From: Betaproteobacteria bacterium
Lineage (GTDB): Bacteria; Pseudomonadota; Gammaproteobacteria; Burkholderiales; Methylophilaceae
Reading direction: 5' to 3'
DNA: 64,000 bases
NCBI GenBank assembly: GCA_016867975.1
Contig: VGIC01000004.1
Coordinates: 11,252 to 75,251, forward strand
Each line of letters opens with the position of its first letter. The first letter of the stretch is position 1. Under the pieces are notes generated by a model. The model was not told where the DNA came from, made no database searches, and saw only the letters and a list, made by a program, of their open reading frames with translations. The translations under genes were made by a program, and so were the position numbers. Below are positions 26,339 to 56,757 of this stretch, piece after piece.

Positions 26339-26467
26339 GGAAGCGCGGATGAATTCCGTTCGTGGTGAGTGTTTTCCGCTCGCTCCTTCGATACACCGCG
26401 CTACGTGCGGCAGTCAGGACGAACGGAAAACGTATCGAACCATAACGCAGAATTCATCAATGTCTCC
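26339..26467. mobile_element. MITE-like element with IS5-like ends and palindromic cargo
   Basis: Imperfect 18-bp TIRs (GGAAGCGCGGATGAATTC / revcomp GGAGACATTGATGAATTC) flanked by TTAA direct repeats, the left one containing the trmJ stop. Internal IRs CCGTTCGT/ACGAACGG and TTCGATAC/GTATCGAA are interleaved. Confidence 0.7.
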
Positions 26468-26496
26468 TTAAACTGCACTTGTGAATACGATGTTAG

Positions 26497-26518
26497 AAAT
26501 TGACTAAAATCCTCATTT
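26497..26518 (+). promoter_or_regulatory. Possible IscR-type site upstream of cysE
   Basis: AAATTGACTAAAATCCTCATTT shares TTGACTAAAA with the iscR-proximal site. Confidence 0.4.
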
Positions 26519-26578
26519 ACTCCACATAAACTACGGCTTTTTGTCAATTTTGCCTAGCCTTCACCGCGTTCTTCTATA

Positions 26579-26592
26579 CGTGCAAAGGTCTC
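26579..26592. repeat. Solo copy of the GAGACCTTTGCA terminal repeat
   Basis: CGTGCAAAGGTCTC matches the right ends at 38401 and 56757; no partner end seen nearby. Confidence 0.45.
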
Positions 26593-26614
26593 CAGTAAAT
26601 TCTTTTATGGCATA

Positions 26615-27379
26615 ATGTCGCCTATGTTTAATCACATCAAAGAAGATATTTCCATCGTGTTCGAGCGAGACCCCGCGGCGCGCACACGCTGGGAAATTTT
26701 GACCACTTATCCAGGTGTGCATGCCTTACTAATACACCGCTTCAGCCATTGCTTGTGGCGTAAGAACTGGTTTTGGCTGGGTCGCTTCTTTTCACATTTA
26801 GGCCGCTGGCTGACAGGCATTGAGATTCATCCCGGCGCAACCATTGGTCGCCGCGTGTTCATTGACCATGGCATGGGCATCGTGATTGGCGAGACCGCAA
26901 CGATTGGTGACGATTGCACGCTCTACCACGGTGTCACTCTAGGTGGGACATCATGGAACAAAGGGAAACGCCACCCTACGCTAGAAAACGGCGTGGTGAT
27001 TGGTGCTGGCGCCAAGGTGCTAGGCCCTATCACAATAGGTGTAGGGGCGAAAATCGGCTCCAATGCCGTCGTTGTTAAAGATGTTCCTGCCAACGCCACG
27101 GCTGTCGGCATTCCTGCTCGGATCCTGGAAGAAGAGAAATCCAAGCAACGCGAAGCCACCGCACAGAAAATCGGATTCGCAGCTTACGCAGTTGGCAATG
27201 ATGAGAATGATCCAATGATTAAAGCCATTCACTCCTTGCTGGACCATGCAACAAAGCAAGATATCGCCTTACGGCAGCTACAGGCGCAGCTTGATAGGCT
27301 CAACGTGAATGAAGAAACCGATGCTGAAATCGGAGATGCATTTGATGTTCAACCTAACACCCAATCGTCAAAAGAGTGA
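26615..27379 (+). CDS. cysE: Serine O-acetyltransferase
   Basis: [34 protein letters not shown] and hexapeptide repeats. Confidence 0.96.
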
Positions 27380-27401
27380 TCCGACGAACCTAAATCGCAC
27401 A

Positions 27402-27426
27402 ATAGTTGACTAAAAACGTAGGGAAT
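27402..27426 (+). promoter_or_regulatory. IscR type-1 binding site / iscR promoter
   Basis: ATAGTTGACTAAAAACGTAGGGAAT resembles ATASYYGACTRWWWYAGTCRRSTAT. Confidence 0.7.
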
Positions 27427-27468
27427 TATACAATCGCCTCCTAGGTCAACTTTTATAAAGTACACACT

Positions 27469-27930
27469 ATGCGCCTCACCACCAAAGGACGATTTGCCGT
27501 CACTGCCATGCTGGATTTGGCAATGCACGAAGCGAAAGGCACTGCTCATGAAAAACCCGTGACGTTAGCTGCTATCAGTGAGCGCCAGAACATCTCGCTC
27601 TCTTATCTGGAACAGCTTTTCAGTCGGCTACGTCGCGAAGGGTTGGTCAATAGCGTACGCGGCCCTGGTGGTGGTTACAATCTTGCCAAGAATTACAACG
27701 AAATCTCCATTGCTACCGTCATCCAAGCGGTGGACGAGTTGATTGATGCCACCCAATGTGGGGGTGAGAAAAATTGCCGCAATGACAAAGGCCCATGCAT
27801 GACGCATGAGCTATGGGCATCGCTCAACGTCAAGATTCTGGACTACCTTTCAGGCGTCACACTTGCCGATGTAATTGCCAGCCAAACTGGGAAAAAGATT
27901 GAAATGAGGGCGCGGCCTAAAAAGGCTTAA
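27469..27930 (+). CDS. iscR: Fe-S cluster assembly regulator IscR
   Basis: [34 protein letters not shown] and three Cys ([14 protein letters not shown]). Confidence 0.96.
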
Positions 27931-27957
27931 CCTGAGGCGGATAAACAAGACTTATAC

Positions 27958-29118
27958 ATGAACGACACCTACCTAGACCACAACGCCACAACCGCACTTG
28001 ATCGCCGAGTGCTTGATGTCATGTTGCCTTGGTTGCTTGAGCAAGCTGGCAACCCAACCAGTCGTCATACTTTTGGTCGAACAGCGCGCAATGCCATTGA
28101 ACATGCAAGGACACAAGTGGCTGAGGCATGCGGCGCCCATGCATCGCAGGTCATCTTCACAGCTTCAGGCACGGAAAGCAACAACTTTGCCATCAAAGGT
28201 ATCAGTGCGAATCTGACGCATAAACGTGTCTTACTCAGCACAATCGAGCATCCTTGTGTTGCGCGCCCAGCCGCAACATTGCAAGCACAAGGCTTTGCCA
28301 TCGAGCGTATTGATGTAGATTACAATGGTAAGCTGAACAAAGCACAACTGAAGACGCAACTTAAAAAACCAGCAGGACTGATTTCGGTCATGCTGGCCAA
28401 CAACGAAACTGGTGGGATTCAAGACATTGCCCAAATAGGCGAATTGGTAAAACAGGCTGGCGCGCTCATGCATACCGATGCCGTGCAAGGCTTGGGCAAG
28501 CTACCATTACATTTCAATAGCCTGAATGTACACGCCATGACCATTTCCAGTCACAAGGTTCATGGTCCGCAAGGCGCGGCTGCGCTGATTCTCGACAAGC
28601 GAGTCGACATTCAACCACTGCTACATGGCGGCGGTCAGGAAAAAGGATTACGCAGTGGCACAGAAAACATCGCCGCCATTGTCGGTTTTGGCATGGCGTG
28701 CGAGCTGGCGATGACCAATCTAGCACATTTCTCCAGCCATACCGCAGCATTGCGCGACCGACTTGAACAAGGGCTAATGCAGTTAAACGCCACGCGCACC
28801 AGCATCACCATATTCGGCAAAACGACAGCCCGACTCCCCAATACCAGCTTTTTCGCAGTCGATGGCATTGAAGGGGAAACCCTGGTAATGGCGCTGGATC
28901 GTGCTGGGTTTGCAGTTGCCAGCGGCTCAGCCTGTTCAAGCGACAGCACCGAACCCAGCCACGTCCTGCTGGCCATGGGAGTAAGTGAAGATCTGGCACG
29001 CGGTGCCATCCGTGTCAGCTTTGGTACTAATAATACCTTGCAGCAGGTCGATGATTTTCTCGCCACATTGACTCAGGAAATATCAAGATTAAAACAGTTA
29101 ACAAGCATTGCAGCTTAA
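27958..29118 (+). CDS. Second cysteine desulfurase (NifS/IscS-like, short C-terminus)
   Basis: YLDHNATT, HTDAVQ, SHKVHGPQG (PLP Lys) and SGSACSS (catalytic Cys); 386 aa. Confidence 0.92.
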   Translation: MNDTYLDHNATTALDRRVLDVMLPWLLEQAGNPTSRHTFGRTARNAIEHARTQVAEACGAHASQVIFTASGTESNNFAIKGISANLTHKRVLLSTIEHPCVARPAATLQAQGFAIERIDVDYNGKLNKAQLKTQLKKPAGLISVMLANNETGGIQDIAQIGELVKQAGALMHTDAVQGLGKLPLHFNSLNVHAMTISSHKVHGPQGAAALILDKRVDIQPLLHGGGQEKGLRSGTENIAAIVGFGMACELAMTNLAHFSSHTAALRDRLEQGLMQLNATRTSITIFGKTTARLPNTSFFAVDGIEGETLVMALDRAGFAVASGSACSSDSTEPSHVLLAMGVSEDLARGAIRVSFGTNNTLQQVDDFLATLTQEISRLKQLTSIAA

Positions 29119-29133
29119 GGATCACATCAACAA

Positions 29134-30387
29134 ATGTCAGCTTCTATCGAATTACCCGTATTAAAACATCGCGATGACGCACATCCGCTCTATCTGGATT
29201 ATTCTGCCACCACACCCGTGGATCCTCGTGTAGCCGCGAAAATGATTCCCTATCTGACCGAGAATTTCGGCAATCCAGCTTCACGCAGCCACCCATACGG
29301 CTGGACTGCAGAAGAAGCCGTCGAAAATGCGCGTGAAGAAGTCGCCAAGCTGGTTGGTGCTGACCCCCGAGAAATTGTCTGGACATCAGGCGCAACAGAA
29401 TCCAACAACCTAGCCATCAAAGGTGCTGCTCACTTTTATGCAGCAACCAAAGGGAAGCACATCATCACTATCGCCACCGAGCATAAGGCAGTGATTGACC
29501 CTGTGCGTGAGCTGGAGCGTCAAGGCTTTGAGGCAACCTTCTTGATACCTGAGCCCAATGGATTGGTGGATATCGAGAAATTCAAAGCTGCAATTCGCCC
29601 CGATACCGTGCTGGCCAGCGTGATGTTCGTTAACAATGAGATCGGTGTAATTCAAGACATCGAGGCAATTGGTCATATCTGCCGCGCGAATAACGTGATT
29701 TTCCATGTCGATGCCGCGCAAGCCACAGGAAAGGTACAGATCAACCTGGAAAAACTACCGGTTGATTTAATGAGTCTCAGTGCTCATAAAACCTACGGAC
29801 CTAAAGGCATTGGTGCGTTGTATGTGCGTCGCAAACCGCGTGTCCGTATTGAAGCGCAAATACACGGTGGTGGGCATGAGCGCGGCATGCGCTCCGGCAC
29901 CTTGGCCACACACCAGATTGCAGGCATGGGAGAGGCCTTCCGCATCGCACGTGAAGAAATGGATACAGAAAACGAACGCATTCGTCGCCTACGTGACAGG
30001 TTGTTACAAGGGCTACTAGAAATCGAAGAAGTGTATGTGAACGGTGAGTTAGAGCATCGTGTACCGCACAATTTGAACATCAGCTTCAATTATGTAGAAG
30101 GCGAATCGCTGATCATGGCGGTCAAAGGCATCGCGGTTTCCAGCGGTTCAGCCTGTACTTCAGCCAGCCTAGAGCCCAGCTATGTGCTACGCGCCTTAGG
30201 TCGTAGCGATGAGTTAGCACACAGCTCTATTCGCTTCTCAATCGGCCGCTTCACCACTGAGGCCGATGTTGATTACACGATTGAACTGATGAAAAGCAAG
30301 ATTGGTAAATTAAGAGAACTGTCACCACTCTGGGAGATGTTCCAGGACGGAATTGACATCTCCAAAGTACAGTGGGCAGCACATTGA
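29134..30387 (+). CDS. iscS: Cysteine desulfurase IscS
   Basis: [36 protein letters not shown] and the C-terminal [14 protein letters not shown] tail. Confidence 0.97.
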
Positions 30388-30401
30388 TAATTTATCTTTG
30401 A

Positions 30402-30475
30402 CTTGTCTGACGTTGTTATCGGCAAGCTCATTTAGAACAAACTAAATGTCGCTTGCCTCTGCCTAATCAGCCAAG
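30402..30475 (-). repeat. Hairpin repeat, divergent variant of the AAGGCG...CAAC family
   Basis: Nested IRs CTTGTCTGA/TCAGCCAAG, GGCAAGC/GCTTGCC and ATTTAG/CTAAAT; minus strand reads AGGCA...CTAAATGAG...CAACG. Confidence 0.55.
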
Positions 30476-30520
30476 CAAATCTTAAATTATCGTAACGATT
30501 GTTTGATAGGAAGTTTATTA

Positions 30521-30624
30521 AAAAATTAAAAGGCAAAGCAAAATCAAGGCGGCAAGGCGCAGAGCAGTACGTATTTGTACGGCAAGCCGAGCCAACGACG
30601 ATTTTGCGAAGCGTTTTAATTTTT
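30521..30624 (+). repeat. Palindromic element (AAGGCG core) directly before the iscU RBS
   Basis: 25-bp arms with 21/25 match; core CAAGGCGG-N6-GCAGAGCAGTACG-TATTT-GTACGGCAAG-N6-CAAC shared with 50391-50490. Confidence 0.7.
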
Positions 30625-30637
30625 AAGGAGTGTTGAA

Positions 30638-31033
30638 ATGGCTTATAGCGACAAAGTACTAGATCATTACGAAAACCCACGTAACGTGGGCAGTCTAGAC
30701 AAAAATGATCCTCAAGTAGGCACCGGCATGGTGGGTGCACCGGCATGTGGCGACGTGATGAAACTCATGATCAAGGTTAATGACGACGGCATCATTGAAG
30801 ATGCCAAATTTAAGACCTATGGTTGCGGCTCCGCGATTGCCTCTAGCTCATTGGTCACAGAGTGGCTAAAAGGCAGAACCATTGAAGAAGCTTATGCAAT
30901 CAAGAATTCTGAGATAGCAGAAGAGCTGGCTTTACCGCCGGTCAAAATCCACTGCTCTGTACTGGCAGAAGATGCCATCAAAGCAGCTGTTGCTGACATC
31001 AAAGCCAAGCAGGCAGCCAAAGATAACGCTTAA
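30638..31033 (+). CDS. iscU: Fe-S scaffold IscU
   Basis: GAPACGDVMKL, KTYGCGSAIASSS and LPPVKIHCS motifs. Confidence 0.98.
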   Translation: MAYSDKVLDHYENPRNVGSLDKNDPQVGTGMVGAPACGDVMKLMIKVNDDGIIEDAKFKTYGCGSAIASSSLVTEWLKGRTIEEAYAIKNSEIAEELALPPVKIHCSVLAEDAIKAAVADIKAKQAAKDNA

Positions 31034-31061
31034 TAAATTTGATGATAAAGACTAAATAGAA

Positions 31062-31385
31062 ATGGCAATCACACTGACACAAACTGCGGCTACCCGCGTA
31101 GAAAAATTCCTGGCGAACCGTGGCAAAGGCATTGGCCTTCGTCTAGGCGTTAAAACTACCGGCTGCTCCGGCATGGCCTATACGCTTGAGTTTGTAGATG
31201 AGATGCAGCCGGAGGACCTTTCATTTGAGAGCCATGGCGTAAAGGTGATTGTAGACCCCAAGAGTCTGGTTTACATCGATGGCACGGAGCTGGACTTTAC
31301 GAAAGAGGGTTTGAACGAAGGCTTTAAATTTAACAACCCGAATGTGAAAGATGAATGCGGCTGTGGCGAAAGTTTCACTGTATAA
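31062..31385 (+). CDS. iscA: A-type Fe-S carrier IscA
   Basis: TTGCSG and ECGCGESF motifs. Confidence 0.98.
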
Positions 31386-31504
31386 AATGCATATGCAAGC
31401 CACTGACTTTGTTGCGCGGTACTCAAAATCCTCATGTACTTCTAGTACATTCCGGCTTCTGCGTTCCGTGCGCCTCGTCATCAATCTTGCTTAAGCATTT
31501 TATA
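31381..31504 (-). repeat. Palindromic element (AAGGCG core, reverse orientation) between iscA and hscB
   Basis: 19-bp arms TATAAAATGCATATGCAAG / CTTGCTTAAGCATTTTATA (17/19) overlapping the iscA stop. Shares GCGCACGGAACGCAGAA and GAGTACCGCG with 35752-35894. Confidence 0.75.
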
Positions 31505-31512
31505 ACTGCCTC

Positions 31513-32031
31513 ATGTTACAAAACCACTTTCAACTTTTCTCTCTGCCCAAGCAATTTGATATCGATGTAAAAGCGCTCGAGTCGAATTACCGCAAGATTC
31601 AATCTGCCAGCCACCCAGACAGATTCGTCAATGCATCTGCATCGGAAAAACTTCAGTCCATGCAACTGGCCACCTCCGCCAACGAGGCCTATCAAGTACT
31701 CAAAAAGCCAGCCAGACGCGCGCAGTATCTGCTTGAACTGAACGGAGTCAATGCGATAGCAGACACCAACACGGCGATGCCTGTCGAATTTCTGATGCAG
31801 CAAATGGAGTGGCGCGAGCGCATGGAAGATGCAAAAGCAGCGCGTGACATCGCAACCTTGGAAACGCTCAACGCTGAACTGCACAAGGATGCACGCTCTA
31901 TCCAGACCGAGTTGGCGCACCTGTTCGATAGGCAAAACGACCTAAGCAAAGCCACCGCAGAGACACGTAAACTCATTTTTATTGATAAAGTCTGTGCCGA
32001 TATTCTGCATGCCATAGAACAAATTGAGTAG
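31513..32031 (+). CDS. hscB: Co-chaperone HscB
   Basis: J-domain HPD motif, NEAYQVLK..RAQYLL and EFLMQQMEWRE. Confidence 0.96.
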   Translation: MLQNHFQLFSLPKQFDIDVKALESNYRKIQSASHPDRFVNASASEKLQSMQLATSANEAYQVLKKPARRAQYLLELNGVNAIADTNTAMPVEFLMQQMEWRERMEDAKAARDIATLETLNAELHKDARSIQTELAHLFDRQNDLSKATAETRKLIFIDKVCADILHAIEQIE

Positions 32032-32083
32032 GCTCGGCTAGAATAAGCACCTCAGATTAATCACACCCACTTTAAATTCAGGT

Positions 32084-33979
32084 ATGGCATTACTCCAAAT
32101 TTCCGAACCAGGCATGAGCGCCGCTCCCCACCAGCACCGACTGGCTGTGGGCATCGACCTAGGCACCACGAACTCCTTGGTAGCCACAGTGCGCAGCGGC
32201 ATGAGTACTGTGCTGCAGGATGACCATGGTCATGCCCTACTACCTTCTGTGGTGCGCTATGCCATCAACGGTGAAGTGATTGTCGGCCATGAAGCACAAG
32301 CGCAGCAAAGCGCCGACCCCGCCAACACCATCAGCTCGGTCAAACGCTTCATGGGGCGCGGCATCCACGACATTGTGGATCGAGCACATATCCCTTACCG
32401 TTTTGTGACCAGTCAGCAAGCGCAGTCATCAAAGATGCTGCAAATCGATACGCGCGCTGGACTCAAAACGCCGGTAGAAATCTCTGCCGAGATTTTGAAG
32501 ACGCTCAAAGCACGTGCAGAAAAGTCACTCGGTGGCGAATTGGTCGGTGTAGTGATCACCGTGCCCGCTTACTTTGATGACGCACAGCGCCAAGCCACTA
32601 AAGATGCAGCGAGACTAGCCGGCCTAAATGTGCTACGCCTGCTGAATGAACCCACTGCAGCGGCTGTTGCCTATGGTTTGGACAATGCTTCAGAAGGCAC
32701 CTATGTGATTTACGACTTAGGCGGCGGCACCTTCGATGTTTCTATCCTGCGGCTTGCCAAAGGCGTGTTTGAGGTACTGGCCACTAACGGCGACTCTGCC
32801 TTGGGAGGCGATGATTTTGATCACCGCATCTACTGCTGGGTACTAGACAAAGTACGTGAAGCAAGCAAAAACTTCGTCCCACTCAATGAAGAAGACACGC
32901 GCCTCTTGCTCAACAAAGCGCGGCAGGCAAAAGAATGGCTCACCGATAATTTTGAAGCTCAGATCCTCTGCAAACTCAGCACGGGCACATTGGTAGATGT
33001 CACGCTGACCGCACCGCAACTGGTTGAGATCACGGAGCATCTTGTCACCAAGACACTTTCCCCCACTCGCAAAGCCATGCGCGATGCCAACCTGAGCATT
33101 GAAGACATCCATGGTGTAGTACTGGTAGGCGGCGCGACACGCATGCCGCACATCCGGCAGGCAGTCGAAGATTTCTTCAAACAGGAACCACTCACCAATT
33201 TAGATCCTGATAAAGTCGTCGCGCTGGGTGCAGCCATCCAAGCCAATGCATTAGTAGGCAACCGCAGTGATAACGATTTACTGTTGCTAGATGTCACACC
33301 ACTTTCTCTTGGTCTGGAAACCATGGGCGGCTTGGTAGAAAAAATCATTCCGCGTAACAGCACCCTGCCGATTGCACGCGCGCAAGATTTCACCACTTAC
33401 AAGGATGGCCAGACTGCGATGAGCATCCATATCGTACAAGGTGAGCGTGAGCTAGTCAGTGATTGCCGCTCACTGGCACGTTTTGATTTGCGAGGCATTC
33501 CACCCATGGCAGCTGGGGCAGCGCGTATCCGCGTCACGTTCACGGTAGATGCCGATGGCTTGTTATCAGTTTCTGCGCGAGAGCAAAGCACTGGCGTGGA
33601 AGCCCACATCGAAGTGAAGCCTTCCTATGGACTTACGGAAGAAGAAATCACTAACATGCTCAAAGCCTCTTTCGCCAGCGCGGCGACCGACAAAAAAGCC
33701 CGCATGTTGCATGAAGCCAGAGTCAGCGCTGGTGCAATTATTCAATCAGTGAATCTAGCGCTGAAAAATGATGGACATCTCATTAACAACGCAGAACAAC
33801 AAGCCATTCGTGATGAAGTTGCACGACTAGAAGCGGTTGCACAAGCTGATGATGCACATGCCATTAATCAGGCGGTGGAAAAGCTCAATCAAGCAACTGA
33901 GGCTTTTGCAGCCGCCCGTATGAATGCAAGTGTCAGCTTGGCCTTAAGCGGCAAAGCCATTAACTCTTTGGAAATGTAA
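32084..33979 (+). CDS. hscA: Fe-S chaperone HscA (Hsp70 family)
   Basis: [34 protein letters not shown] and DLGGGTFD motifs. Confidence 0.97.
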
Positions 33980-33981
33980 CC

Positions 33982-34323
33982 ATGCCACAAATCATCGTAC
34001 TGCCTCACATTGAACTCTGCCCGGAAGGCGCGGCAATTGAAGCCAACACAGGTGACTCCATTTGCGACACCTTACTCAACCACGATATTGATATTGACCA
34101 TGCCTGCGACAAAGTTTGCGCATGCACCACTTGCCACGTCATTGTGCGTGAAGGCTACAAAAGCCTGAACCCAGCTGAAGAGAGTGAAGAAGACCTGCTC
34201 GACAAGGCGTGGGGGCTGGAGCCCTTGTCACGCCTATCTTGCCAGGCCATTGTGGGTGATAGCGACCTTGTAGTGGAAATTCCCAAATACAGCATCAACA
34301 TGGCCAAAGAAGGCAAACGCTAG
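33982..34323 (+). CDS. fdx: ISC 2Fe-2S ferredoxin
   Basis: HACDKVCACTTCH and SRLSCQ motifs. Confidence 0.97.
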   Translation: MPQIIVLPHIELCPEGAAIEANTGDSICDTLLNHDIDIDHACDKVCACTTCHVIVREGYKSLNPAEESEEDLLDKAWGLEPLSRLSCQAIVGDSDLVVEIPKYSINMAKEGKR

Positions 34324-34343
34324 GGCCTATTCACAGGCCCTAG
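34320..34343. terminator. Hairpin between convergent fdx and SulP
   Basis: CTAGGGCCT-attcac-AGGCCCTAG; no clear U-tract. Confidence 0.45.
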
Positions 34344-34353
34344 TTAACAGACC

Positions 34354-35724: not shown

Positions 35725-35751
35725 TTTATAAGTGTCCTGTGTGTTGTTTAA

Positions 35752-35894
35752 GGAAAGGCTGATTAAATCGGCGAGCGAGATAAAGTGCAAGGCGCACGGA
35801 ACGCAGAAACCGAGATAGTATGCGGTATACAGCGAGGTTGCGAGTACCGCGTAACGAAGCAATTTGCTCGCGTAGACATTTAATCAGTGTTTCC
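35752..35894. mobile_element. MITE-like element: GGAAA..CTGATTAAAT shell with AAGGCG core
   Basis: 17-bp TIRs (15/17) flanked by TTAA and TTAG; the right flank is the carbonic anhydrase stop. Core is homologous to 31381-31504 and 56344-56757. Confidence 0.75.
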
Positions 35895-36539
35895 TTAGAT
35901 TTTAAGGGTGTCTTGCATGAAGTGAACCTTGCCTGTACTAATGTCATACACTGCACCGATGATTGCGATTTTTTTGTCTTGTATCATGTCGGTGACAATG
36001 TCGCTACTACGGATGATGGTGTCAATTTGATGTTGCACGCTCAGGCGGTTAATTTTTTCCACGAAATCAGGGTTTTTTGAGCACCGATCTTCTGGGTTTG
36101 TAATGGTTTTTTCATGTCTAATCGCCGGTTTAATCAAATTGATAATCTCACCAATGTGACCATCCATAAAGTTATCGCAGGCTGCTTTAACTGCACCGCA
36201 TGAGGTATGCCCCATCACCACAATCAGCTTGCTGCCTAAATATTTGCTGGCAAACTCTAGGCTGCCAATGGCTTTGTCTGAGGCGATATTGCCTGCCAAA
36301 CGCACACTAAATATATCCCCCAGCGCTTGATCAAATACCAACTCTACTGGAGCGCGAGAATCACTGCAGCTTAAAAAAGAAGCAAAAGGGTGTTGCTTGT
36401 CCTTGGTTTGGTGGATGAGCGTTTGAAAGTCTTTGTCTTCCTCGCAGTCAGACAAAAAACGCTGATTACCTTCAATCAAAATATCCAGCGCCTCTTGCGG
36501 CGTCATTTTGTCACGGTCTAATAACGGGTGTTTATACAT
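35895..36539 (-). CDS. Beta-class carbonic anhydrase
   Basis: EGNQRF, CSDSR and GHTSCGAV zinc-ligand motifs; GDIFSVRLAGN. Confidence 0.95.
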   Translation of the reverse strand: MYKHPLLDRDKMTPQEALDILIEGNQRFLSDCEEDKDFQTLIHQTKDKQHPFASFLSCSDSRAPVELVFDQALGDIFSVRLAGNIASDKAIGSLEFASKYLGSKLIVVMGHTSCGAVKAACDNFMDGHIGEIINLIKPAIRHEKTITNPEDRCSKNPDFVEKINRLSVQHQIDTIIRSSDIVTDMIQDKKIAIIGAVYDISTGKVHFMQDTLKI

Positions 36540-36555
36540 CAGGTTCTCCTTATTA

Positions 36556-38100: not shown

Positions 38101-38116
38101 GTTAGTGAAACTCCCT

Positions 38117-38401
38117 GAGACCTTTGCACAAAGCATTTTTAACCTAAAAATCTATCAAGTTTGTCATTCCGGCGGAGGCCGGAATCCAGACAGGCTCCAT
38201 AGCCAACTAAAATAACTTTAGCAAGGGCGATTGTTAACTAAACTATAAAAACAATAGGTTATATTGATTTTTCCGACATTATTTTCACTAAAGTTACTAC
38301 TCTAAATGTCACCTTGCCTAGATTCCGGCCTCCGCCGGAATGACGGGTTTTTGATATTTTAGTTAAAAATTGAACCATTTTTTGTTTTGTGCAAAGGTCT
38401 C
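38117..38401. mobile_element. 285-bp nested-palindrome MITE with GAGACCTTTGCA ends and an inverted REP-like doublet
   Basis: Perfect 16-bp TIR GAGACCTTTGCACAAA; subterminal AT-rich IR; inner 27-bp IR GTCATTCCGGCGGAGGCCGGAATCCAG (38163-38189 vs 38318-38344, 26/27). Confidence 0.8.
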
Positions 38402-38802: not shown

Positions 38803-38837
38803 GTCCATCTCCTAATCCCTTATTCGCACACTCACTA

Positions 38838-39221: not shown

Positions 39222-39242
39222 ACGGTATATACTATATGGCAT

Positions 39243-44747: not shown

Positions 44748-44773
44748 AATTAGCCATGCATTAAAAGCAATGA

Positions 44774-45472: not shown

Positions 45473-45502
45473 AACAAAGCCGATTATTGTTCCTTAAGGA
45501 TA

Positions 45503-47041: not shown

Positions 47042-47148
47042 TCATCCGATACTGGGCTAATCATAGCAAACTTGGCACCTCCTGCTAAATAATAATTAAG
47101 CATTTACTTATGGAAGCACGGAATAAGGTTCCATATGCAATCGGCAAT

Positions 47149-47169
47149 AAAAAACCCCGCAATTGCGGG
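47149..47169 (-). terminator. Intrinsic terminator after the OprO/P porin
   Basis: CCCGC-aatt-GCGGG followed by GTTTTTT on the minus strand. Confidence 0.65.
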
Positions 47170-47247
47170 ATAAAGAGGGAGTTTGTAAACCTTTTATTGG
47201 AATGAATTTGTCGTTCTAAATGTGCAATTCACATGCCTTTTACACGC

Positions 47248-48627: not shown

Positions 48628-48686
48628 TTAAATTCCCTCTTGTTTTAAGTAGTGATTTACTGCATTTTAAATTTTGAACTGCCTGT

Positions 48687-48704
48687 GTGACAATTTGATG
48701 ACAA
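48687..48704 (-). promoter_or_regulatory. Pho box upstream of the porin
   Basis: TTGTCAT-caaa-TTGTCAC on the minus strand, 11-bp periodicity. Confidence 0.8.
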
Positions 48705-48754
48705 AAAGCAATTTGCTCACAAACCCTGACTAAATGTTGCTTTTTTGCAACAAC

Positions 48755-48788
48755 AAAAAGCCGCCTGTCGTTTCCGGCAGGCGGCTTT
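48755..48788 (-). terminator. Intrinsic terminator after lysS
   Basis: AAAGCCGCCTG/CAGGCGGCTTT stem with a U-tract. Confidence 0.8.
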
Positions 48789-48815
48789 CTAAATGGGACT
48801 GCTGCGATGTAAGAA

Positions 48816-50351
48816 CTAAGCTTCAGCGCGCATATGTGGAAACAGAATCACATCACGAATACTTGGGCTGTCGGTGATCATCATCACCAAACGGTCGATA
48901 CCGATCCCGCAACCGCCTGTCGGTGGCATGCCATATTCCAGCGCGCGAATAAAGTCTGCATCGTAATACATCGCTTCTTGGTCACCCGCCTCTTTTGCTT
49001 TCATTTGTGCATGGAAGCGTGCTGCTTGGTCTTCGGCATCATTCAGCTCGCTAAAACCATTGGCGATCTCACGACCACAGACGAATAATTCGAAACGCTC
49101 GGTGATTTCCGGGTTGGCATCCGAGGCACGCGCCAAAGGTGACACTTCCACCGGATAATCAATGATATAGGTCGGGTTCCATAATTGCGCTTCGGCGGTT
49201 TCTTCAAACAAGGCTAATTGCAAGGCGCCTAAACCGGCATGGTCAAACGGTTTGGTGCCGAACTTCATGATTTCTTTACGCAGGAAAGCTTCATCATGCA
49301 ATTGCTCTAAGGTATATTGCGGTGCATATTTCTGAATCGCCCCCACAATGGTCAAACGCTCGAACGGCTTGCTTAAATCCAGCTCACGCCCCTGATACTG
49401 CAACACGGCAGAACCGGTGGCCGCAATGGCTGCGGTACGGATACAACGCTCGGTAAAGTCCATCAGCCACAGGTAATCGGTATAGGCCGCATAGAATTCC
49501 ATCATGGTGAATTCTGGGTTATGACGTACGCTTAAGCCTTCATTACGGAAGTTACGGTTCACCTCAAACACACGCTCAAAACCGCCAACGACCAAACGCT
49601 TTAAATAAAGCTCAGGCGCAATACGCATGAACATCTGCATATCCAGCGCATTATGATGCGTAATAAATGGCTTGGCCGATGCACCGCCCGGAATCGGGTG
49701 CAGCATGGGCGTTTCTACCTCAAGGAATTGATTCTCCAGCATAAACGCACGAATGGCAGACACCACTTTACTGCGCGCAACAAAGGTTTTGCGTGTTTCT
49801 TCAGACACAATCAAATCCACATAACGCTGACGGTATTTCACCTCTTGGTCTTGCAGTCCGTGGAATTTTTCTGGCAATGGGCGCAATGACTTGGTCAATA
49901 AGCGCAATTCAGACACTTTGACGGAAAGTTCGCCTGTTTTGGTTTTAAACAACACGCCCTTGGCCGCGATGATGTCGCCTAAGTCCCAGTGTTTAAAAGC
50001 CTCATAAAGCGCTTCACTATTCTCACCCGCCAAGTTGTCTTTAGAAATAAACAACTGAATACGGCCAGTACTGTCTTGCACGGTGGCAAAGCTGGCTTTA
50101 CCCATCACGCGCTTGAGCATCATGCGGCCGGCAATACTCACGTGCACGGCTTTAGGGTCTAAGATTTCGTTTTCAAAACCACCAAATTCGGCATGCAGCA
50201 CCGCTGCTTGTGAGTCAGGCTTGAAATCATTAGGAAAAGCCGCGCCGCCATTTGATTTAGCGTGTTCACGTATTGTTTTTAATTTTTCGCGACGCTCGGC
50301 AATGACGTGGTTTTCATCTATGGGCTGTGGAGTTGTTGATTGTTCAGTCAT
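48816..50351 (-). CDS. lysS: Lysyl-tRNA synthetase (class II)
   Basis: [38 protein letters not shown] and GIGIDRL motifs. Confidence 0.98.
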
Positions 50352-50390
50352 TTTTTTAAGTGTTTAATTTCAAAGGTTAAATTAACAAAA

Positions 50391-50490
50391 TTTCGTTTGC
50401 ATTCCTGCTCAGACAAGGCGGAGACACGCAGACAGTACGCATTGTACGGCAAGTGGCGACAACACCGTATGAGCGGGAATGAAAGCGTAA
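50391..50490 (+). repeat. Palindromic element (AAGGCG core) between prfB and lysS
   Basis: Arms CATTCCTGCTCA/TGAGCGGGAATG with imperfect extension; core CAAGGCGG-N6-GCAGACAGTACG-CATT-GTACGGCAAG-N6-CAAC. Confidence 0.7.
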
Positions 50491-50491
50491 A

Positions 50492-51596
50492 TCATACGCC
50501 CTGCTTCAAACTTTCAGTAACAAATGGGTCAAGGTCACCATCCAGCACCCCTTGGGTATTGCCAATCTCCACGCCTGTGCGTAGATCCTTGATACGTGAC
50601 TGATCGAGCACATAAGAGCGGATCTGATGCCCCCAACCGATGTCGGTCTTGGCATCTTCCAGCGCTTGTTTTTCTGCGTTGCGCTTGTTCAGCTCAAGGT
50701 TATACAGCGCACCTTTCAGCATATTCATGGCTTCGTCTTTATTGCGATGTTGTGAACGGTCGTTTTGACATTGCACTACCACACCAGTTGGCAAGTGCGT
50801 GATACGCACCGCTGAATCGGTTTTGTTAATATGCTGACCGCCTGCGCCACTGGCGCGATAGGTATCGATACGCAGATCTGCCGGATTAATTTCAATCTGA
50901 ATTGAATCATCCACCTCCGGAAACACCTGCACACTGGCAAAACTGGTATGCCGTTTGGCGTTCGAGTCAAACGGCGACTTACGCACCAGTCGATGCACAC
51001 CATTCTCGGTGCGCAGTGTGCCATAGGCGTAATCGCCCGACACCTTGATAGAGGCGCCTTTGATACCAGCGACATCGCCTTCAGACTCTTCTAGCACCTC
51101 GACCTTGAAGCCCTTGCGCTCGCAGTAGCGTAAATACATGCGCAACAGCATATTCGCCCAGTCTTGCGCTTCCGTACCGCCACTGCCAGACTGAAATTCT
51201 ACAAAGCAATTGGCAGAGTCTAGCTCTCCAGAGAACATACGCCTGAACTCCATTTCGGCGATTTGCTTCTCAATAGCGATGGAATCTGCATCAACACTGA
51301 ACAGTGTCTCATCATCATTCTCTTCACGCGCCATTTCAAAGAGTTCTTGCGCATCTTTCAGGCTAGACTGCACCCCGATCAAGGTGCCCACAATCGTCTC
51401 TAACTCCCGCTTTTCTTTACCTAGCTTCTGACTTTTAGCGTTATCGTCCCAAATCTTAGGGTCTTCTAAAAGACCATTCACTTCTTCTAGGCGCTGACTT
51501 CTAGCTTCAAAGTCAAAGATACCCCCGAAGGGCGTTGTTGCGATCACCTAAATCGTTGATGCGATTGGCGATGATATTGAGTTGTTCTGCTTCCAT
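50492..51596 (-). CDS. prfB: Peptide chain release factor 2, translated via a +1 frameshift
   Basis: ATG at 51596 gives [27 protein letters not shown] then CTT TGA C; the +1 frame continues DFEARSQRL with SPF and GGQ motifs. Confidence 0.97.
51512..51526 (-). promoter_or_regulatory. prfB programmed +1 frameshift cassette
   Basis: Internal SD GGGGG, 3 nt, then CTTTGAC. Confidence 0.95.
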
Positions 51597-51652
51597 AACC
51601 GATTGAGCTTAATCACTAAACCCAGCATTATACATCAAGTGCTTATGCTCAC

Positions 51653-52066
51653 TTAGCTGGCTTGAGCATTCACCACTTCGCCATCTTCTTTAGTAAAAGT
51701 ACCAATGTTAGGATTCTCCAATATCGACAGCACCAACTCGGAAGGGCGACACAGCTTAACGCCTTTAGCAGTCACGACTATCGGGCGGTTAATCAGTATC
51801 GGGTGTTGCAACATGACAGCAATTAATGCCTCTTCAGACAGACTCGGATTATCCAACCCAAGCTCGGCAAAGGGCGTACCTTTTTCGCGCAAGATATCTC
51901 TGGCATTAACGCCCATGGCGGCAATCAGCTCTATCAGACGCTCTCGACTAGGTGGTGTCTTCAAGTACTCGATGACCTCTGGCTCCACACCGCTCGCATG
52001 AATCATAGCTAGGGTGTTACGTGAGGTGCCACATGCCGGATTGTGGTAAATCGTGACCTTGTTCAT
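51653..52066 (-). CDS. arsC: Arsenate reductase, glutaredoxin-dependent ArsC family
   Basis: TIYHNPACGTSRN, ILREKGT, HPILINRPIV and LCRPSE motifs; start placed at MNKVT. Confidence 0.93.
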   Translation of the reverse strand: MNKVTIYHNPACGTSRNTLAMIHASGVEPEVIEYLKTPPSRERLIELIAAMGVNARDILREKGTPFAELGLDNPSLSEEALIAVMLQHPILINRPIVVTAKGVKLCRPSELVLSILENPNIGTFTKEDGEVVNAQAS

Positions 52067-52191
52067 GTGATATATTCCTTTGATTGATATGTTTCGACAA
52101 TTTAACCTCAATGTAAAACAACCTGATGGATAATCTACGATTAAATCCGATTAAACACTCACAGATTTTGCGTTAGGCGATTAAACTTGTA

Positions 52192-52220
52192 CTGTCATAA
52201 AAATGTAATAAATTAGCAAT
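52192..52220 (+). promoter_or_regulatory. Pho box array upstream of DUF47-pit
   Basis: CTGTCAT-aaaa-ATGTAAT-aaat-TAGCAAT, half-sites at 11-bp spacing. Confidence 0.7.
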
Positions 52221-52273
52221 ATAATAAATCTGAAATGTAATAAATCAGAAATTATTTAGGGAGATTAAACACT

Positions 52274-52930
52274 ATGGCGAACGCAACGTTAGGCCGCTTG
52301 ATGGCAGCAGTTTCACCACGCAACGACAATTATTTTGTACTATTCAACAGCTTAGCAGATTGTGCGGTGAAGGGCTCTAAAGTGTTGGCTTTAATGACCA
52401 GCTTGCGAGATTCAGAAAAATTTGACGAGCACTTTGCAGAGCTCAGAAAAATAGAATCCGAGGCAGATGAGTACACCAAGGAAATTCTGCTGTCCTTACA
52501 TAAGACTTTCATTACACCGTTCGACCGCCGTGAGATCCGTGAACTGGCCATGGCGCTTGATGACATCATCGACTATATGGAAGATATTCCGCAAAGTGCA
52601 AAGATCTACGGTCACACTGCATTCACACCAGAAATGGTTGCACTGGCCCAGATTCTGTTGCGTGCATCTGAAAAAGTGCGTGAAGCAGTCAACATGCTGG
52701 CAGACATGAAAGATGCAGGGCGCATCCTGCGTACCTGTGAAGAAATCAGCGCCATTGAAGGTGAAGCTGATCATGTCATGCGAGCCGGCATGCACCGTTT
52801 GTTTGAGGAAGAGTCAGACGCGCGCACCTTGATTCGATCTAAGGAACTCTACGATATTTTTGAAGAGGCAGTAGACAGCTGTGAAGATGTGGCCGATGTG
52901 ATTCACGGCGTAGTGTTAGAGCGAATTTAA
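52274..52930 (+). CDS. DUF47 / PhoU-like Pit accessory protein
   Basis: IESEAD, LHKTFITPFDRREI..LDDIID, EGEAD and LE..VD.CEDVAD motifs. Confidence 0.92.
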   Translation: MANATLGRLMAAVSPRNDNYFVLFNSLADCAVKGSKVLALMTSLRDSEKFDEHFAELRKIESEADEYTKEILLSLHKTFITPFDRREIRELAMALDDIIDYMEDIPQSAKIYGHTAFTPEMVALAQILLRASEKVREAVNMLADMKDAGRILRTCEEISAIEGEADHVMRAGMHRLFEEESDARTLIRSKELYDIFEEAVDSCEDVADVIHGVVLERI

Positions 52931-52940
52931 GGGGCACGGT

Positions 52941-53942
52941 ATGGATCACGCAATTCTCATCATGGCCTTGCTAGTGATGGTTGCCCTCATATTTGACTTT
53001 ATGAATGGCTTCCATGATGCAGCGAACTCTATCGCACTCATGGTCTCCACACGCTTGCTGACCCCGCAAGCGGCCGTAGCATGGGCTGCTTTCTTTAACT
53101 TCATTGCATTCTTGTTCTTTGGTCTGCATGTTGCCGATACCATTGGCAAAGGCATTATCGATCCCCATATCGTCAATAACGCCGTGATATTTGGGGCACT
53201 CGGTGGCGCCATTGCCTGGAACGTTATCACGTGGTGGTTTGGCATTCCCTCTTCATCGTCACACGCTTTGATTGGTGGCTTACTCGGTGCCGGCGTGGCG
53301 CACGCAGGGACCAAGGGCATTATCATTGGTAGCAAGCTCATCACCACCGGTGTTGCGATTGTGCTATCGCCTTTGTTCGGCATGCTACTGGCGATGGTGC
53401 TATCAGTGCTTTTGTTATGGGTATTTCAGAAGTCATCCCCATACAAAACGGAGAGTCGCTTCAATAAGCTACAGTTCATCTCGTCCTCTTTATTCAGCTT
53501 GGGACACGGCGCAAACGATGCACAAAAGACCATGGGGATTATTACTGTTTTACTATTCGCCAATGGTTATCTTCAAGGTGATTTCCACGTGCCATTTTGG
53601 GTGGTAATTTCATGCCAGCTTGCTATGGGACTTGGCACGCTAATGGGTGGCTGGCGTATTGTACGCACGATGGGCATGGGCATCACTAAAGTGCGCCCAA
53701 CTGGTGCTTTTTGCGCACAAACTTCCGGTTCCATCGCCTTGTTCTTAGCCACATCACTGGGCATCCCGGTCTCTACCACACACACCATCACTGGTGCGAT
53801 TGTAGGGGTAGGCGTGTCGCGACGTGCTTCTGCAGTGCGCTGGGGATTAGCATCCAGAATTGTCTGGGCTTGGGTGCTCACGATCCCTTGTGCAGGGCTG
53901 ATCGCTGCGATGACTTATCATCTAGGTCGCAGTTTCTTATAA
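52941..53942 (+). CDS. PiT-family inorganic phosphate transporter
   Basis: GFHDAANSIA, PSSSSHALIG, GHGANDAQK and PVSTTH motifs. Confidence 0.95.
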   Translation: MDHAILIMALLVMVALIFDFMNGFHDAANSIALMVSTRLLTPQAAVAWAAFFNFIAFLFFGLHVADTIGKGIIDPHIVNNAVIFGALGGAIAWNVITWWFGIPSSSSHALIGGLLGAGVAHAGTKGIIIGSKLITTGVAIVLSPLFGMLLAMVLSVLLLWVFQKSSPYKTESRFNKLQFISSSLFSLGHGANDAQKTMGIITVLLFANGYLQGDFHVPFWVVISCQLAMGLGTLMGGWRIVRTMGMGITKVRPTGAFCAQTSGSIALFLATSLGIPVSTTHTITGAIVGVGVSRRASAVRWGLASRIVWAWVLTIPCAGLIAAMTYHLGRSFL

Positions 53943-54088
53943 CCGCACTCAAAAATCTCCTTACAAAAGGGCTCGACTCGAACTTTTTTTTATGCGGTCG
54001 AGAACAGAACACTAGGCTTCAGCTACGCAGAAGAAAGAAACTCGCCAGCCGGGCGAGAGCAGCAAAAAGCAAAGCCACCCATACTCCA

Positions 54089-54118
54089 TAGGGCAGACTG
54101 CAAACGAGTCTGCCCTAC
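54089..54118 (-). repeat. GTAG-type REP-like hairpin
   Basis: Minus strand GTAGGGCAGACT-cgtttgc-AGTCTGCCCTA, just past the glmM stop. Confidence 0.6.
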
Positions 54119-54125
54119 GCGGGCT

Positions 54126-55481
54126 TTATGAGGCTGCTTGCGCCACTACGTCCGCAATCTTCTGCGCCAGCGTTTTTACCTGCGCTGCATTTTCGCCCTC
54201 TACCATGACGCGAATTTTCGGCTCCGTACCAGAAGCCCGCAGCAGTACGCGACCTGTATCCTGCAACTCAGTCTCTGCCTGCTTCACGGCTTCCTGAATG
54301 CGCGGATTATTCAAATCCAGGTTCTGCTTGGTAGTAACATTAATCAGTAGCTGCGGATACAGCGTCAAATTGGCACCCAATTGGCCTAATGTTTTGTTAC
54401 TTTGAATAACGGCATGTAGCACCTGCAATGCAGCGATAATGCCATCACCGCTACTGTGCTTGTCTAATGTCAGGATATGCCCGGAGTTCTCACCGCCCAA
54501 CTGCCAATTATTCTGAATGAGCAACTCCAGCACATAGCGGTCACCCACTTTGGCTCGCGCAAACGGGATATTCATCGCCGCCAGCTGATGCTCCAAGGCC
54601 AGATTCGTCATCAGTGTGCCGACCACGCCACCTTGCAAAGTGCCAACTTGTTGCCTTGCAGCCGCAATAATGTAGAGCAGCTGATCCCCATCCAATAAGC
54701 GACCATTGCCATCCACCATCATCACGCGGTCACCATCACCATCAAACGCAATGCCTAAATCTGCCTGATGCTCCACAACGGCTTTTTGCAATGCTTCAGG
54801 GTGCGTAGAACCCACCTGCTCATTGATGTTCAAGCCATCTGGTTTATTGCCAATGACGACCACCTCAGCACCCAATTCATGGAACACTGGTGGCGCCACA
54901 TGGTAGGTGGCACCATGCGCACAATCCAACACGATCTTCAGACCACGCAAATCTAGTTGATTGGGGAATGTGCTTTTACAAAATTCCACATAGCGTCCGG
55001 CGGCATCGTCAATGCGGCGCGCTTTACCCAGCTTTGCAGACTCCATCACATGCATCGGCTTTTCCAACTCTGCCTCGATTGCATGCTCAATATCATCTGG
55101 AAGCTTAGTGCCCAAACTGGAGAAGAACTTGATACCGTTATCGTAGTACGGGTTATGTGAGGCCGAGATCACGATACCGGCTTGCGCCCGCAAAGCACGT
55201 GTTAAATAGGCTACTGCAGGCGTAGGCATCGGGCCGGTCAGTAGCACATCAACTCCGGCTGCAGACAATCCCGCCTCCAATGCCGCCTCCAGCATGTAGC
55301 CGGAGATTCGCGTGTCTTTACCGATCAGCACCGCTGGATGCGCACCCTTAGCTAGATGGCTCTCGATACCGGTGAGCACCCGACCAGCTGCATATCCTAA
55401 GCGCATCACAAACTCTGGGGTGATGGTAGCATCCCCTACACGACCACGAATCCCGTCTGTACCAAAATATTTCTTAGTCAT
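54126..55481 (-). CDS. glmM: Phosphoglucosamine mutase
   Basis: [21 protein letters not shown] and GGENSGH motifs. Confidence 0.97.
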
Positions 55482-55498
55482 TATATTCTTTCCACTCT

Positions 55499-56341
55499 TC
55501 AATTAAGCAACATCACTGCCTCAACGACCTTCAAAGCCTCTACCGTTGCTTTCACATCATGGACGCGTACAATTTTTGCGCCCTTCATCGCAGAAACAAC
55601 AGACGCTGCAATCCCTGCATGCAATCGCTGCTGTTCACCCCCCCCTGCTATCCTGCCCAAGACTGATTTACGCGACAACCCGACCAATAATGGGTAACCA
55701 ATATTCACCAAGCGATCCAAATGCTGGATCAAAGCTATGTTATGTTCTTTGGTTTTACCAAAACCGAAACCCGGATCCAGCAAGATACGATCAGCCGCGA
55801 TACCCTTTGCCACGGCGGCATCAGCTCGCCCACACAAGAACTGCTGCACTTCCAACACCACATCATGATAGGTGGGGTTCAGTTGCATCGTCTGTGGCGT
55901 CCCCTGCATGTGCATCAGACAAACACCCGCATCACTGTCAGCCACCACGTCTAGCGCACCTTCCTCTTGTAAAGCACGCACATCATTCACAATATCCGCA
56001 CCTGCTTGAATTGCTGCGCGCATCACTTCCGGCTTGTAAGTATCAATCGAGAGTGGAATCTGCGTCGTTGCGCTAAGCACCTCAATCACAGGAATAACGC
56101 GATCCAACTCTACTTGTAGCGGCACTGGTTCTGCACCTGGGCGTGTGGACTCACCACCAATATCAAGAATATCTGCGCCTTCTTCAATCAGTCGCAACGC
56201 ATGTGCAACAGCCAAATCCGTTGCAGCGTATTTTCCACCGTCAGAAAATGAGTCAGGCGTCACATTGACGATCCCCATTACGCGGGAGCGACTCAGATCA
56301 AGCTGATATCGGCCGCAGGAAAATATATGATTGCTAACCAT
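55499..56341 (-). CDS. folP: Dihydropteroate synthase
   Basis: [38 protein letters not shown] and RVHDV motifs; start placed at MVSNH. The 113-codon upstream extension lies in the MITE. Confidence 0.96.
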
Positions 56342-56343
56342 AT

Positions 56344-56757
56344 GAGACCTTTGCAAAAGTGCTTCTTGTGGATGAAGCGTACCAGTGATTGGCATATCCG
56401 TGGAATATATGCGCTGAAGCGCATTATTCACACGCCAAAGGCGCACACCCGCACGGGGCATCACCAACCTCGCTAGATGCTGAAGCATTAAGTCGGTTGT
56501 GACGGAACGCATAAACCGAGAAAACCAACGCAGTGTTTCGGCGTAGGCTAACTCACGAAGCGATGTTAAGCGTAGCGGCCGAAGCCATAGTATGCGGTAT
56601 ACAGCGAGGTTGCGAATTTGTTTTTGGCAGGCATTTGAGCGTAGCTCAAAGCTCGCACAACGTAGTTGCGGTGTAGGCATAACCTTAAGGTTATGCCGTA
56701 ACCAAAAAACCGCGTAACGCAGTGATTCGCCATAGGAAGTAGTTTTGCAAAGGTCTC
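56344..56757. mobile_element. 414-bp composite MITE with GAGACCTTTGCAAAA ends between ftsH and folP
   Basis: Perfect 15-bp TIRs; four collinear blocks match the 35752-35894 core, separated by hairpin-rich inserts including GTAG-GCATAACC-TTAA-GGTTATGC. Confidence 0.8.

Follow-up and report, generated by a model that had tools for sequence, protein, structure and literature searches.

A widespread superfamily of putative type II MITEs with a constant hairpin interior and interchangeable IS5-type termini

How can the same ends enclose unrelated interiors, and the same interior sit between unrelated ends, within one stretch of bacterial DNA? The question is raised by a 64,000-nucleotide window (positions 11,252 to 75,251 of contig VGIC01000004.1, assembly GCA_016867975.1) from a betaproteobacterium of the family Methylophilaceae, in which a preliminary description had placed several small palindromic elements and had read them as non-autonomous elements with shuffled shells (the ends) and cargoes (the interiors). 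All of the named elements were found where they had been placed. [quoted passage not shown]

The window elements, all of them intergenic, are listed below. A, B (with families B1 to B4) and C denote end classes or shells, K1 to K4 the blocks of the core, and TIR a terminal inverted repeat. The assembly is G000; C-numbers are its contigs, the window being C4:11252-75251, G-numbers are sampled genomes and L-numbers are individual loci.

E1, 26339..26467, no strand assigned: shell-A element without the core; inner palindrome CCGTTCG..CGAACGG; TIRs GGAAGCGCGGATGAATTC / GGAGACATTGATGAATTC
E1 target duplication, TTAA at 26335-26338 and 26468-26471; single related copy at C28:18772
E1b, 26472..26592, minus strand: one-ended copy of a third GAGACCTTTGCACG family (B3), the other end missing where E1 abuts
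E5, 30521..30624, plus strand: 104-nt palindromic element with 25-nt arms, between iscS and iscU
E6, 31385..31505, minus strand: decayed, core-bearing, located between iscA and hscB, its outer TIRs no longer recognizable; core 31407-31477, minus strand
E2, 35752..35894, plus strand: canonical 143-bp element with shell-A end, 36-nt left arm, 72-nt core (35788-35859) and 38-nt right arm
E2 termini, TIRs GGAAAGGCTGATTAAAT / GGAAACACTGATTAAAT; flanks TTAA / TTAG
E3, 38117..38401, no strand assigned: shell-B element (B4); cargo is the inverted doublet GTCATTCCGGCGGAGGCCGGAATCCAG at 38163-38192 / 38315-38344
E7, 50391..50490, plus strand: about 100 nt, with arms of about 23 nt, TTTCGTTTGCATTCCTGCTCAGA / reverse complement of TTTACGCTTTCATTCCCGCTCATA
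E4, 56344..56757, plus strand: 414-bp shell-B1 element with expanded core split by three inserts; 28-nt TIRs; 5-bp flanks CATAT/CATAC
E4 layout, first part: mod1 56395-56437; K1 56438-56446; ins1 56447-56501; K2 56502-56521
E4 layout, second part: X 56522-56586; K3 56587-56615; Y 56616-56708; K4 56709-56723
Shell-C right-arm fragment (GCAGGCAATCAGCGAAGCTGATGCTCGC type), 6472..6543 (in the locus C4:17683-17834), no strand assigned: outside the range covered by the preliminary description, in the same repeat network

What is the constant interior? The core was aligned from 20 distinct copies from six genomes, and spans 72 aligned nt at a mean column identity of 89%. Its consensus is predicted to fold into a single irregular hairpin of three helices (K1:K4, K2:K3' and the tip GTAY..RTAC), with 19 consensus pairs, five of which carry compensatory changes; the folding z-scores are -4.7 for E2 and -8.4 for E4. 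A covariance model of the 72-nt core, R1, scored E2 at 99 bits. In E4, three inserts (ins1, 55 nt; X, 65 nt; Y, 93 nt) lie between the four core blocks, in the internal loops, and the K2-K3 part was scored at 21.6 bits (E 0.002). The core is absent from E1. The claim that three further arm pairs hold the same core stood for the element placed at 31381 (E6), where the core is 73% identical over its full length and scores 70.6 bits, this copy having belonged to the training set of R1. The element at 50391 (E7) is a borderline core relative (50414-50467, 19.4 bits, E 0.008) lacking the outer helix. In E5, at 30521, no R1 match was detected even at E<=10; its centre, AAGGCG..CAGTACG..GTACGGCAAG, is similar to that of E7 only.

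Extra hairpin modules occupy three fixed internal-loop sites in constant order. Eleven interior architectures were found in 17 B loci and 20 in 50 C loci, all collinear and with the order unchanged. The word "shuffled" overstates the case, because the variation consists of the presence or absence of collinear modules, which are never re-ordered. Two kinds of junction were observed. One is exact and recurs across shells, namely absence of X (in A, B and C copies), absence of Y with a GT filler, and absence of ins1; the other comprises deletions found once each, with microhomology of 5-14 nt (for example AACGCAGTGATTCG). As GTAGGC-hairpins, the X and Yb modules have a head like that of repetitive extragenic palindromic (REP) units; the 72-nt core itself does not fit a REP palindrome, which measures 20-40 nt and is headed by GTAG or CGTC. 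X- and Yb-like GTAG hairpins were found in other families too, X at a different internal site in G065 (L380). At C5:13158-13214, X, which is a double hairpin with a GTAG head, occurs alone and not within a TIR-bounded element.

How many kinds of ends enclose this core? Self-BLAST of the genome joined A, B1 and C elements in a single connected network of 124 loci and about 21 kb, and the elements make up about 1.3% of the genome. They measure 30-414 bp and have no transposase coding capacity. Three end classes, A, B1 and C, coexist with the core in this one genome, which bears out the view that the same core sits in several shells.

Shell A (GGAA..CTGAT.AA with TTAA/TTAG flanks) occurs at five loci, three of them with the core (E2, C12:36752-36894 and C23:15535-15677) and two with the CCGTTCG-type interior (E1 and C28:18772). 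The two interiors described for this shell are thus both present, and they are linked by C28:18772, a hybrid with an E2-like end and an E1-like cargo. Over about 18 nt, the ends of E1 and E2 can be aligned with one another and with either end of a full-length IS5-group IS. Shell B, GAGACCTTTGCA, was found five times in the window against 0.02 expected from shuffles, and at 49 ends genome-wide with at most one mismatch. At least four families, their interiors unrelated, lie between such ends: B1, which has the core (E4), B2, B3 (E1b) and B4 (E3). The two interiors reported for shell B, the doublet of E3 and the split core of E4, were both confirmed. Shell C, GGGCACTTCTATAAAT, had gone unseen and is the commonest member of the network, with 84 ends (at most three mismatches) and 22 clean pairs. 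Its smallest form, at C16:24895, is no more than a 30-bp TIR pair flanked by a TAAT duplication; 70- and 90-bp forms also occur, the longest reaches 343 bp, and many copies carry the core with inserts of the E2/E4 kind. Overall, shells and cargoes tabulated across the genome are not in fixed pairing, so the outcome named beforehand as refuting the preliminary description was not obtained.

The ends behave as those of transposable elements. For shell C, the 4-bp duplication is perfect in 12 of the 22 pairs and has at most one mismatch in 20 (controls, 0% and 8%); for shell B, the 5-bp duplication is perfect in 4 of 11 and has at most one mismatch in 9 (controls, 0% and 2%); and for shell A the 4-bp duplications are TTAA/TTAA, TTGA/TTGA and TTAA/TTAG. 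The duplications are therefore short and of constant length, as in a MITE. The 5-bp flanks of E3 agree at four of five positions. The TAA stop of the gene upstream of E1, which ends at 26338, lies inside the left TTAA duplication, so that E1 is inserted exactly at the stop. The neighbouring E1b is 88% identical over 122 nt to C12:22120-22260 and C19:3072-3212.

Which transposases might recognize these ends? The reading of the shells as transposon ends held, in that A, B and C each match the TIRs of full-length IS5-family elements that make 4- or 5-bp duplications, and all three are accordingly assigned, from sequence, as TIRs of the family (NF033581). The shell-A partner is a 1192-bp IS of a congener (L101), with ends GGAAGCGCTGAACAATTC / GGAACCACTGATTTATTC and flanks TTAA/CTAA; its end is identical to the E1 end at 14 of 18 positions and to the E2 end at about 14 of 17. 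The shell-C partner, also from a congener (L103), is a 1336-bp IS with ends GGGGACATCTATTAAT / GGGCACCTCTATTAAT, 14 of 16 nt being identical to shell C. For shell B, the partner is found in Neisseria sp. CP9 (L217), where GAGACCTTTGCAAAA bounds an IS1106-like gene. The preliminary statement that Neisseria IS1106 has such ends was correct: ISNme1/IS1106-type IS5 elements end in GAGACCTTTGCAAAA, ISNme1 carries the shell-B TIR and is the proposed parent of the type II MITE ATR, and P. gingivalis has MITEs with the same end (Klein 2015, PMC4596501). This exact 15-mer is frequent in Neisseria, Kingella and others. In another family, D-class MITEs and the IS L377/L378 of the same genome share CAGGCCGTTGAAAAA, only those approximately 16 nt. 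All four partner-IS transposases tested matched the NCBIfam IS5 model NF033581.

The likeness between IS and MITE arms stops beyond about 16-18 nt. Similarity is thus confined to the TIR, as required of a type II MITE (definitions of types I and II: Minnick 2024, PMC10969869). A type I origin, with the core as a conserved subterminal IS sequence, was rejected: nothing core-like was found in L101, L103, L217, L377 or L378, and none of 120 core loci from other taxa has an IS5 transposase within 8 kb, which also counts against it. Nor is E1 a deletion derivative of an L101-like IS, the alignment holding for the first ~18 nt only.

Do interiors follow their shells? Elements were classed by their arms (A, 3; B1, 17; C, 50), and interior similarity was found to be independent of shell. 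Within-shell and between-shell identities were 0.885 and 0.899 for ins1, 0.910 and 0.906 for K3, and 0.822 and 0.833 for mod1, and nearest neighbours share a shell no more often than in label shuffles (p 0.43-0.97). The sole module that tracks the shell is K4 (18/21), which adjoins the right arm. The clearest single case is E4 (B1), whose interior is 96% identical over 333 bp to that of the shell-C element C19:29882-30214, with shells that cannot be aligned and identity collapsing at both arm boundaries. Interiors that do not cluster by shell, together with the junction types, argue for patch-wise exchange plus deletion rather than a deletion series within each shell. The supposition that all variants are internal deletions of one long master per shell is already disfavoured and very improbable: collinear architectures and the 5-14 nt microhomology at some junctions, typical of slipped-strand deletion, would suit it, but it leaves unexplained both the failure to cluster by shell and the interior common to E4 and a C element, and across the order the short 72-nt core is the commonest form (95 of 106 copies being 70-74 nt).

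What the shells do share is geometry. The left arm measures 36 nt in A, B1 and C alike and the right arm 38, 38 and 37 nt, respectively, and the shells resemble one another in the inner ~10 nt of each arm. Full-length homology of the three shells was rejected, since it holds only for that inner stretch and for the right arms of B1 and C.

How far does the core extend beyond this genome? Within the genus, BLAST detected it in 11 genomes out of 25; 16 other families gave no hit. Among the congeners, G011 holds a burst of B1 elements with the core and G018 a burst of A elements with the core, the near-identity of these copies lending indirect support to mobility; the complete genome G017 holds A with the core, A with the core and X, and C with the core. 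R1 was applied to an order-wide sample of 201 genomes from 116 genera, where it found the core in 39 genomes and 33 genera, at up to 24 copies per genome. It also found the core in MITEs with B ends from Neisseria dentiae, N. shayeganii and metagenome-assembled genomes (MAGs) of Neisseriaceae (E 6e-8 to 6e-6). The 19-mer CAAGGCGCACGGARCGCAG has exact matches in Thiobacillaceae, Polaromonas, Gallionella, Nitrosomonas, Rhodocyclaceae and others, and also in Lysobacterales, Halomonadaceae, Marinobacterium and Geobacter, that is, in Beta-, Gamma- and Deltaproteobacteria.

The automatic terminus finder used on the wide sample anchored ends wrongly by 1-3 nt, making its tallies of arm lengths and duplications unreliable, so arm lengths in distant taxa are given as hand counts on individual sequences. 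By such counts, distant copies have a left arm of 35 or 36 nt and flanks that are often YTAR (e.g., CTAA/CTAA, TTAA/TTAA and TTAG/TTAG), and Neisseria copies likewise have a 36-nt left arm. Further end classes were seen: A-like GGAAGCGCTGAATAAATC, C-like GGGCACCTCGAAAAACC, D CAGGCCGTTGAAAAAC, AGAGCTTGTGAAGAAA and GAAGCTGTTTTTAAAA. In Geobacter, where MAGs carry core-bearing elements (L274 and L292), a B-like end, GAGTCTCTTGCAAAAC, was found. G065 holds A- and D-class copies together (L249). A different arrangement was noted in another family of the same order, where a core-bearing unit is repeated head to tail, with periods of 142 bp and 122 bp (G134:C5:33755-34389 and 139783-140220, L246), rather than dispersed as TIR-bounded copies.

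How might one interior have come to lie under so many ends? The explanation towards which we lean, on balance, is that of an old type II MITE chassis whose termini have been re-matched to resident IS5 transposases and whose interiors have been swapped by gene conversion. The chassis would consist of the 72-nt irregular hairpin core, a 36-nt left arm and a right arm of about 38 nt, and between classes only the outermost ~16 nt would vary, each version matching the TIRs of a different IS5-group IS. A matching IS5 transposase would mobilize the element in trans, giving rise to the 4-bp (A, C) or 5-bp (B) duplications. New end classes would have arisen when the termini of a pre-existing core-bearing element were re-matched to whichever IS5 transposase was resident. 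Because interiors stay homologous, short-patch gene conversion could transfer interior segments between classes, with unequal recombination at the internal AACGCAG(TG) repeats contributing to the exchange. GTAG-headed hairpin modules (ins1, X and Y) in the internal loops of the core would be gained or lost at fixed junctions, and the unrelated cargoes under the same ends (E1, E3 and B2-B3) would be other type II MITEs using the same transposases.

Several observations weigh against this explanation. No DDE_Tnp_1 or NF033581 gene was found anywhere in the G000 assembly (1.56 Mb, 44 contigs, 92.7% complete, 48% G+C). Its neighbouring contigs overlap by exactly 127 nt at all contig ends, suggesting a de Bruijn assembly with k=127, in which any repeat above that length, an IS included, would be collapsed or lost. 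No B-type IS was found among the 24 DDE_Tnp_1 loci of Methylotenera, and the host is a member of Methylophilaceae, not Neisseria, because its HscA is 85% identical to that of a Methylotenera MAG. IS5_4 transposases are not enriched in core-positive genomes (13/39, compared with 74/201 overall). The outer arms of different shells are mostly no more similar to one another than shuffled sequences are, the B1 versus C right arm being the exception, so the case for common descent of the shells comes down to their geometry and to the likeness of the inner arms. No hybrid-shell element occurs among the arm-classed elements, gene conversion being a conjecture drawn from the interiors, and mobility is read from copies and flanks. 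Finally, a purely selfish passenger would not readily account for a core conserved in several proteobacterial classes, unless that core has a (hypothetical) role in cis.

A bolder form of the chassis explanation is held only tentatively: the 36 + 72 + 38-nt hairpin may be a universal MITE chassis with the core as a conserved cis-acting module, which would fold the element so as to present any IS5-group ends, or would recruit a host factor.

The strongest rival to chassis descent is repeated capture, in which the core with its inner arms (about 95-110 nt) would be a mobile or copy-pasted hairpin unit, nested independently at the midpoint of minimal TIR pairs in several IS5-type MITEs, the X/Y-type GTAG hairpins later entering the core loops by the same route. 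Minimal shell-C elements of the kind that such insertion would need do exist; module junctions are exact and recur across shells; X has a solo copy and, in L380, another internal site; and the outer arms of different shells are mostly unrelated. Against these points, the core-shell junction shows neither duplication nor terminal signature, no stand-alone core without arms was seen, and arm lengths of 36 and 38 nt in all shells and taxa would not be expected of independent insertions into unrelated TIR pairs. An enzyme is also wanting. The preliminary description had thought of the cargo as REP-like, which would implicate a REP-associated tyrosine transposase (RAYT), but Y1_Tnp is not associated with the core (26/39 core-positive genomes, compared with 133/201 overall) and is absent from genomes with 11, 20 and 24 core copies. 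The sole Y1_Tnp copy in G000 is an IS200/RAYT-like pseudogene at C28:1140-1925 (L001), outside the window, which carries a frameshift and an in-frame TAG; the inverted repeats on its two sides, GGGGTCAGACACGAT / ATCGTGTCTGACCCC, are unrelated to the MITEs. A RAYT/REPIN origin was thus rejected, given the co-occurrence counts and these flanks, and the proposed search for IS5 or RAYT genes with matching ends succeeded for IS5 alone, in congeners and Neisseria. Repeated capture is regarded as rather unlikely, although the data do not decide between chassis descent and combinatorial capture as routes. The combinatorial capture first suggested is borne out in that the core occurs under several shells; the shells are not arbitrary, however, and the constant geometry of 36 nt, a 70-74-nt core and about 38 nt, together with alike inner arms, fits one old family changing its outermost ~16 nt better than free capture.

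Could the core instead be useful to the host, with the MITE shells merely vehicles? Under this explanation selection would keep the core for a cellular role, for instance as a site in the DNA to which a protein binds, as a terminator working in both directions or a stabilizer of mRNA, or as a small RNA. Its conservation from Methylophilaceae to Halomonadaceae and Geobacter, the compensatory changes, the strong folding and the copies between genes of operons such as isc, where both E5 and E6 lie, are all compatible with such a role. However, its distribution is patchy within the genus, and copy number varies from 1 to 24. Between co-directional genes no preference of orientation was found (6 same, 9 opposite), and the sense strand folds better in 33 of 56 elements by a mean of 2.6 kcal/mol, a weak asymmetry (p 0.017) among copies that are not independent; a function as sense RNA was rejected on these grounds. 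Rfam 15 gave no match in the window at gathering score and none even at E<=1 for E2 and E4, so that no known RNA family was recognized. A host-useful core is accordingly considered doubtful.

How do these elements compare with known systems? No account of the core, or of several TIR classes enclosing a single MITE interior, was found in the literature; among published sequence strings the core was unmatched, and the TIR was found only in Klein 2015. The closest relatives in organization are ATR (N. meningitidis, parent ISNme1) and BrickBuilt and MITEPgRS (P. gingivalis), which have a 12-15-nt TIR identical to shell B (PMC4596501). Like the present elements, they share only the TIR with an IS, have unrelated and partly repetitive cargo, and occur as intergenic copies with short variable target duplications. 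Unlike them, each is defined by a single TIR class and a single cargo, whereas here one genome alone has the core under at least three TIR classes, and further classes occur elsewhere. BOX (Streptococcus pneumoniae) and BIME/NIME are similar in their collinear combinations of hairpin units with variable presence (PMC3184786; PMC3898611), and the GTAG-headed palindromes described here resemble REP units. However, BIME/NIME form unbounded arrays that lack TIRs and target duplications, and REPs require RAYT, whereas the present elements are bounded by IS5 TIRs with duplications and show no RAYT association. Correia (CREE/NEMIS) and ERIC are likewise palindromic MITEs of about 100-160 bp, with long and short internal variants, often in operons, but their TIRs, core and target (TA for Correia) are unrelated and they have a single TIR class. 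Chunjie, a MITE from Geobacter uraniireducens (Chen et al. 2008; citation in PMC10969869), is size-variable, in a genus where core-bearing elements also occur.

Some likenesses concern single elements. The E3 doublet ATTCCGGCGGAGGCCGGAAT, written GTCATTCCGGC..GCCGGAATGAC, lies inside B ends, as in Neisseria L125 and L141, and has three copies in G000 and no arrays. In NIME/dRS3, by comparison, RS units lie in arrays between 20-bp dRS3 repeats (ATTCCC-N8-GGGAAT). The GTCATTCC-N-GGAATCCAG doublet has the same layout in Neisseria (ATTCCC-N8-GGGAAT; L125 4023-4218, L141 4521-5066) as in E3 (ATTCCG-N8-CGGAAT), and its distance from the terminus is 49 nt in Neisseria and 46 nt in E3. BRE, a repeat of about 90 bp in Betaproteobacteria (Hot et al. 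2011, PMC3110155), has CCAAGGC ... GGCAGCAAGC ... GCGCAGCG motifs, is sometimes tandem, and has 69% G+C and no described TIRs. The same motifs are common to E5, E7, the Neisseria core form and the Bordetella BRE. From this likeness, judged by eye, BRE may be a distant relative of the core; identity with it was rejected, as the likeness is at the motif level only. A separate repeat of about 240 bp, with about ten copies (C18:13870-14114, C1:25937-26173, C9:5718-5974 and about seven more), consists of a 190-bp unit (TTGAACCTAATAAACGC...) beside a terminator-like hairpin (ACCGCAGTTAAACACGTTAAGTGTGCGGTTTT), and may be a small duplicated gene or another element.

What would this mean for the biology of such elements? 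They sit in operons such as isc, break short-read assemblies in relatives, and are invisible to Rfam and current annotation. MITEs are usually defined by their ends, the interior being regarded as filler; here the interior is conserved and widespread, and the ends vary with what would be the resident transposase. If the chassis were universal, one non-coding parasite would switch transposase lineages via about 16 terminal bases, which would account for its having persisted, with six or more end classes, in Beta-, Gamma- and Deltaproteobacteria. If transposition required the core in cis, no subterminal requirement or aid to folding would have been defined earlier for the IS5 family, and the core would offer a simple model for non-autonomous elements that switch among transposases.

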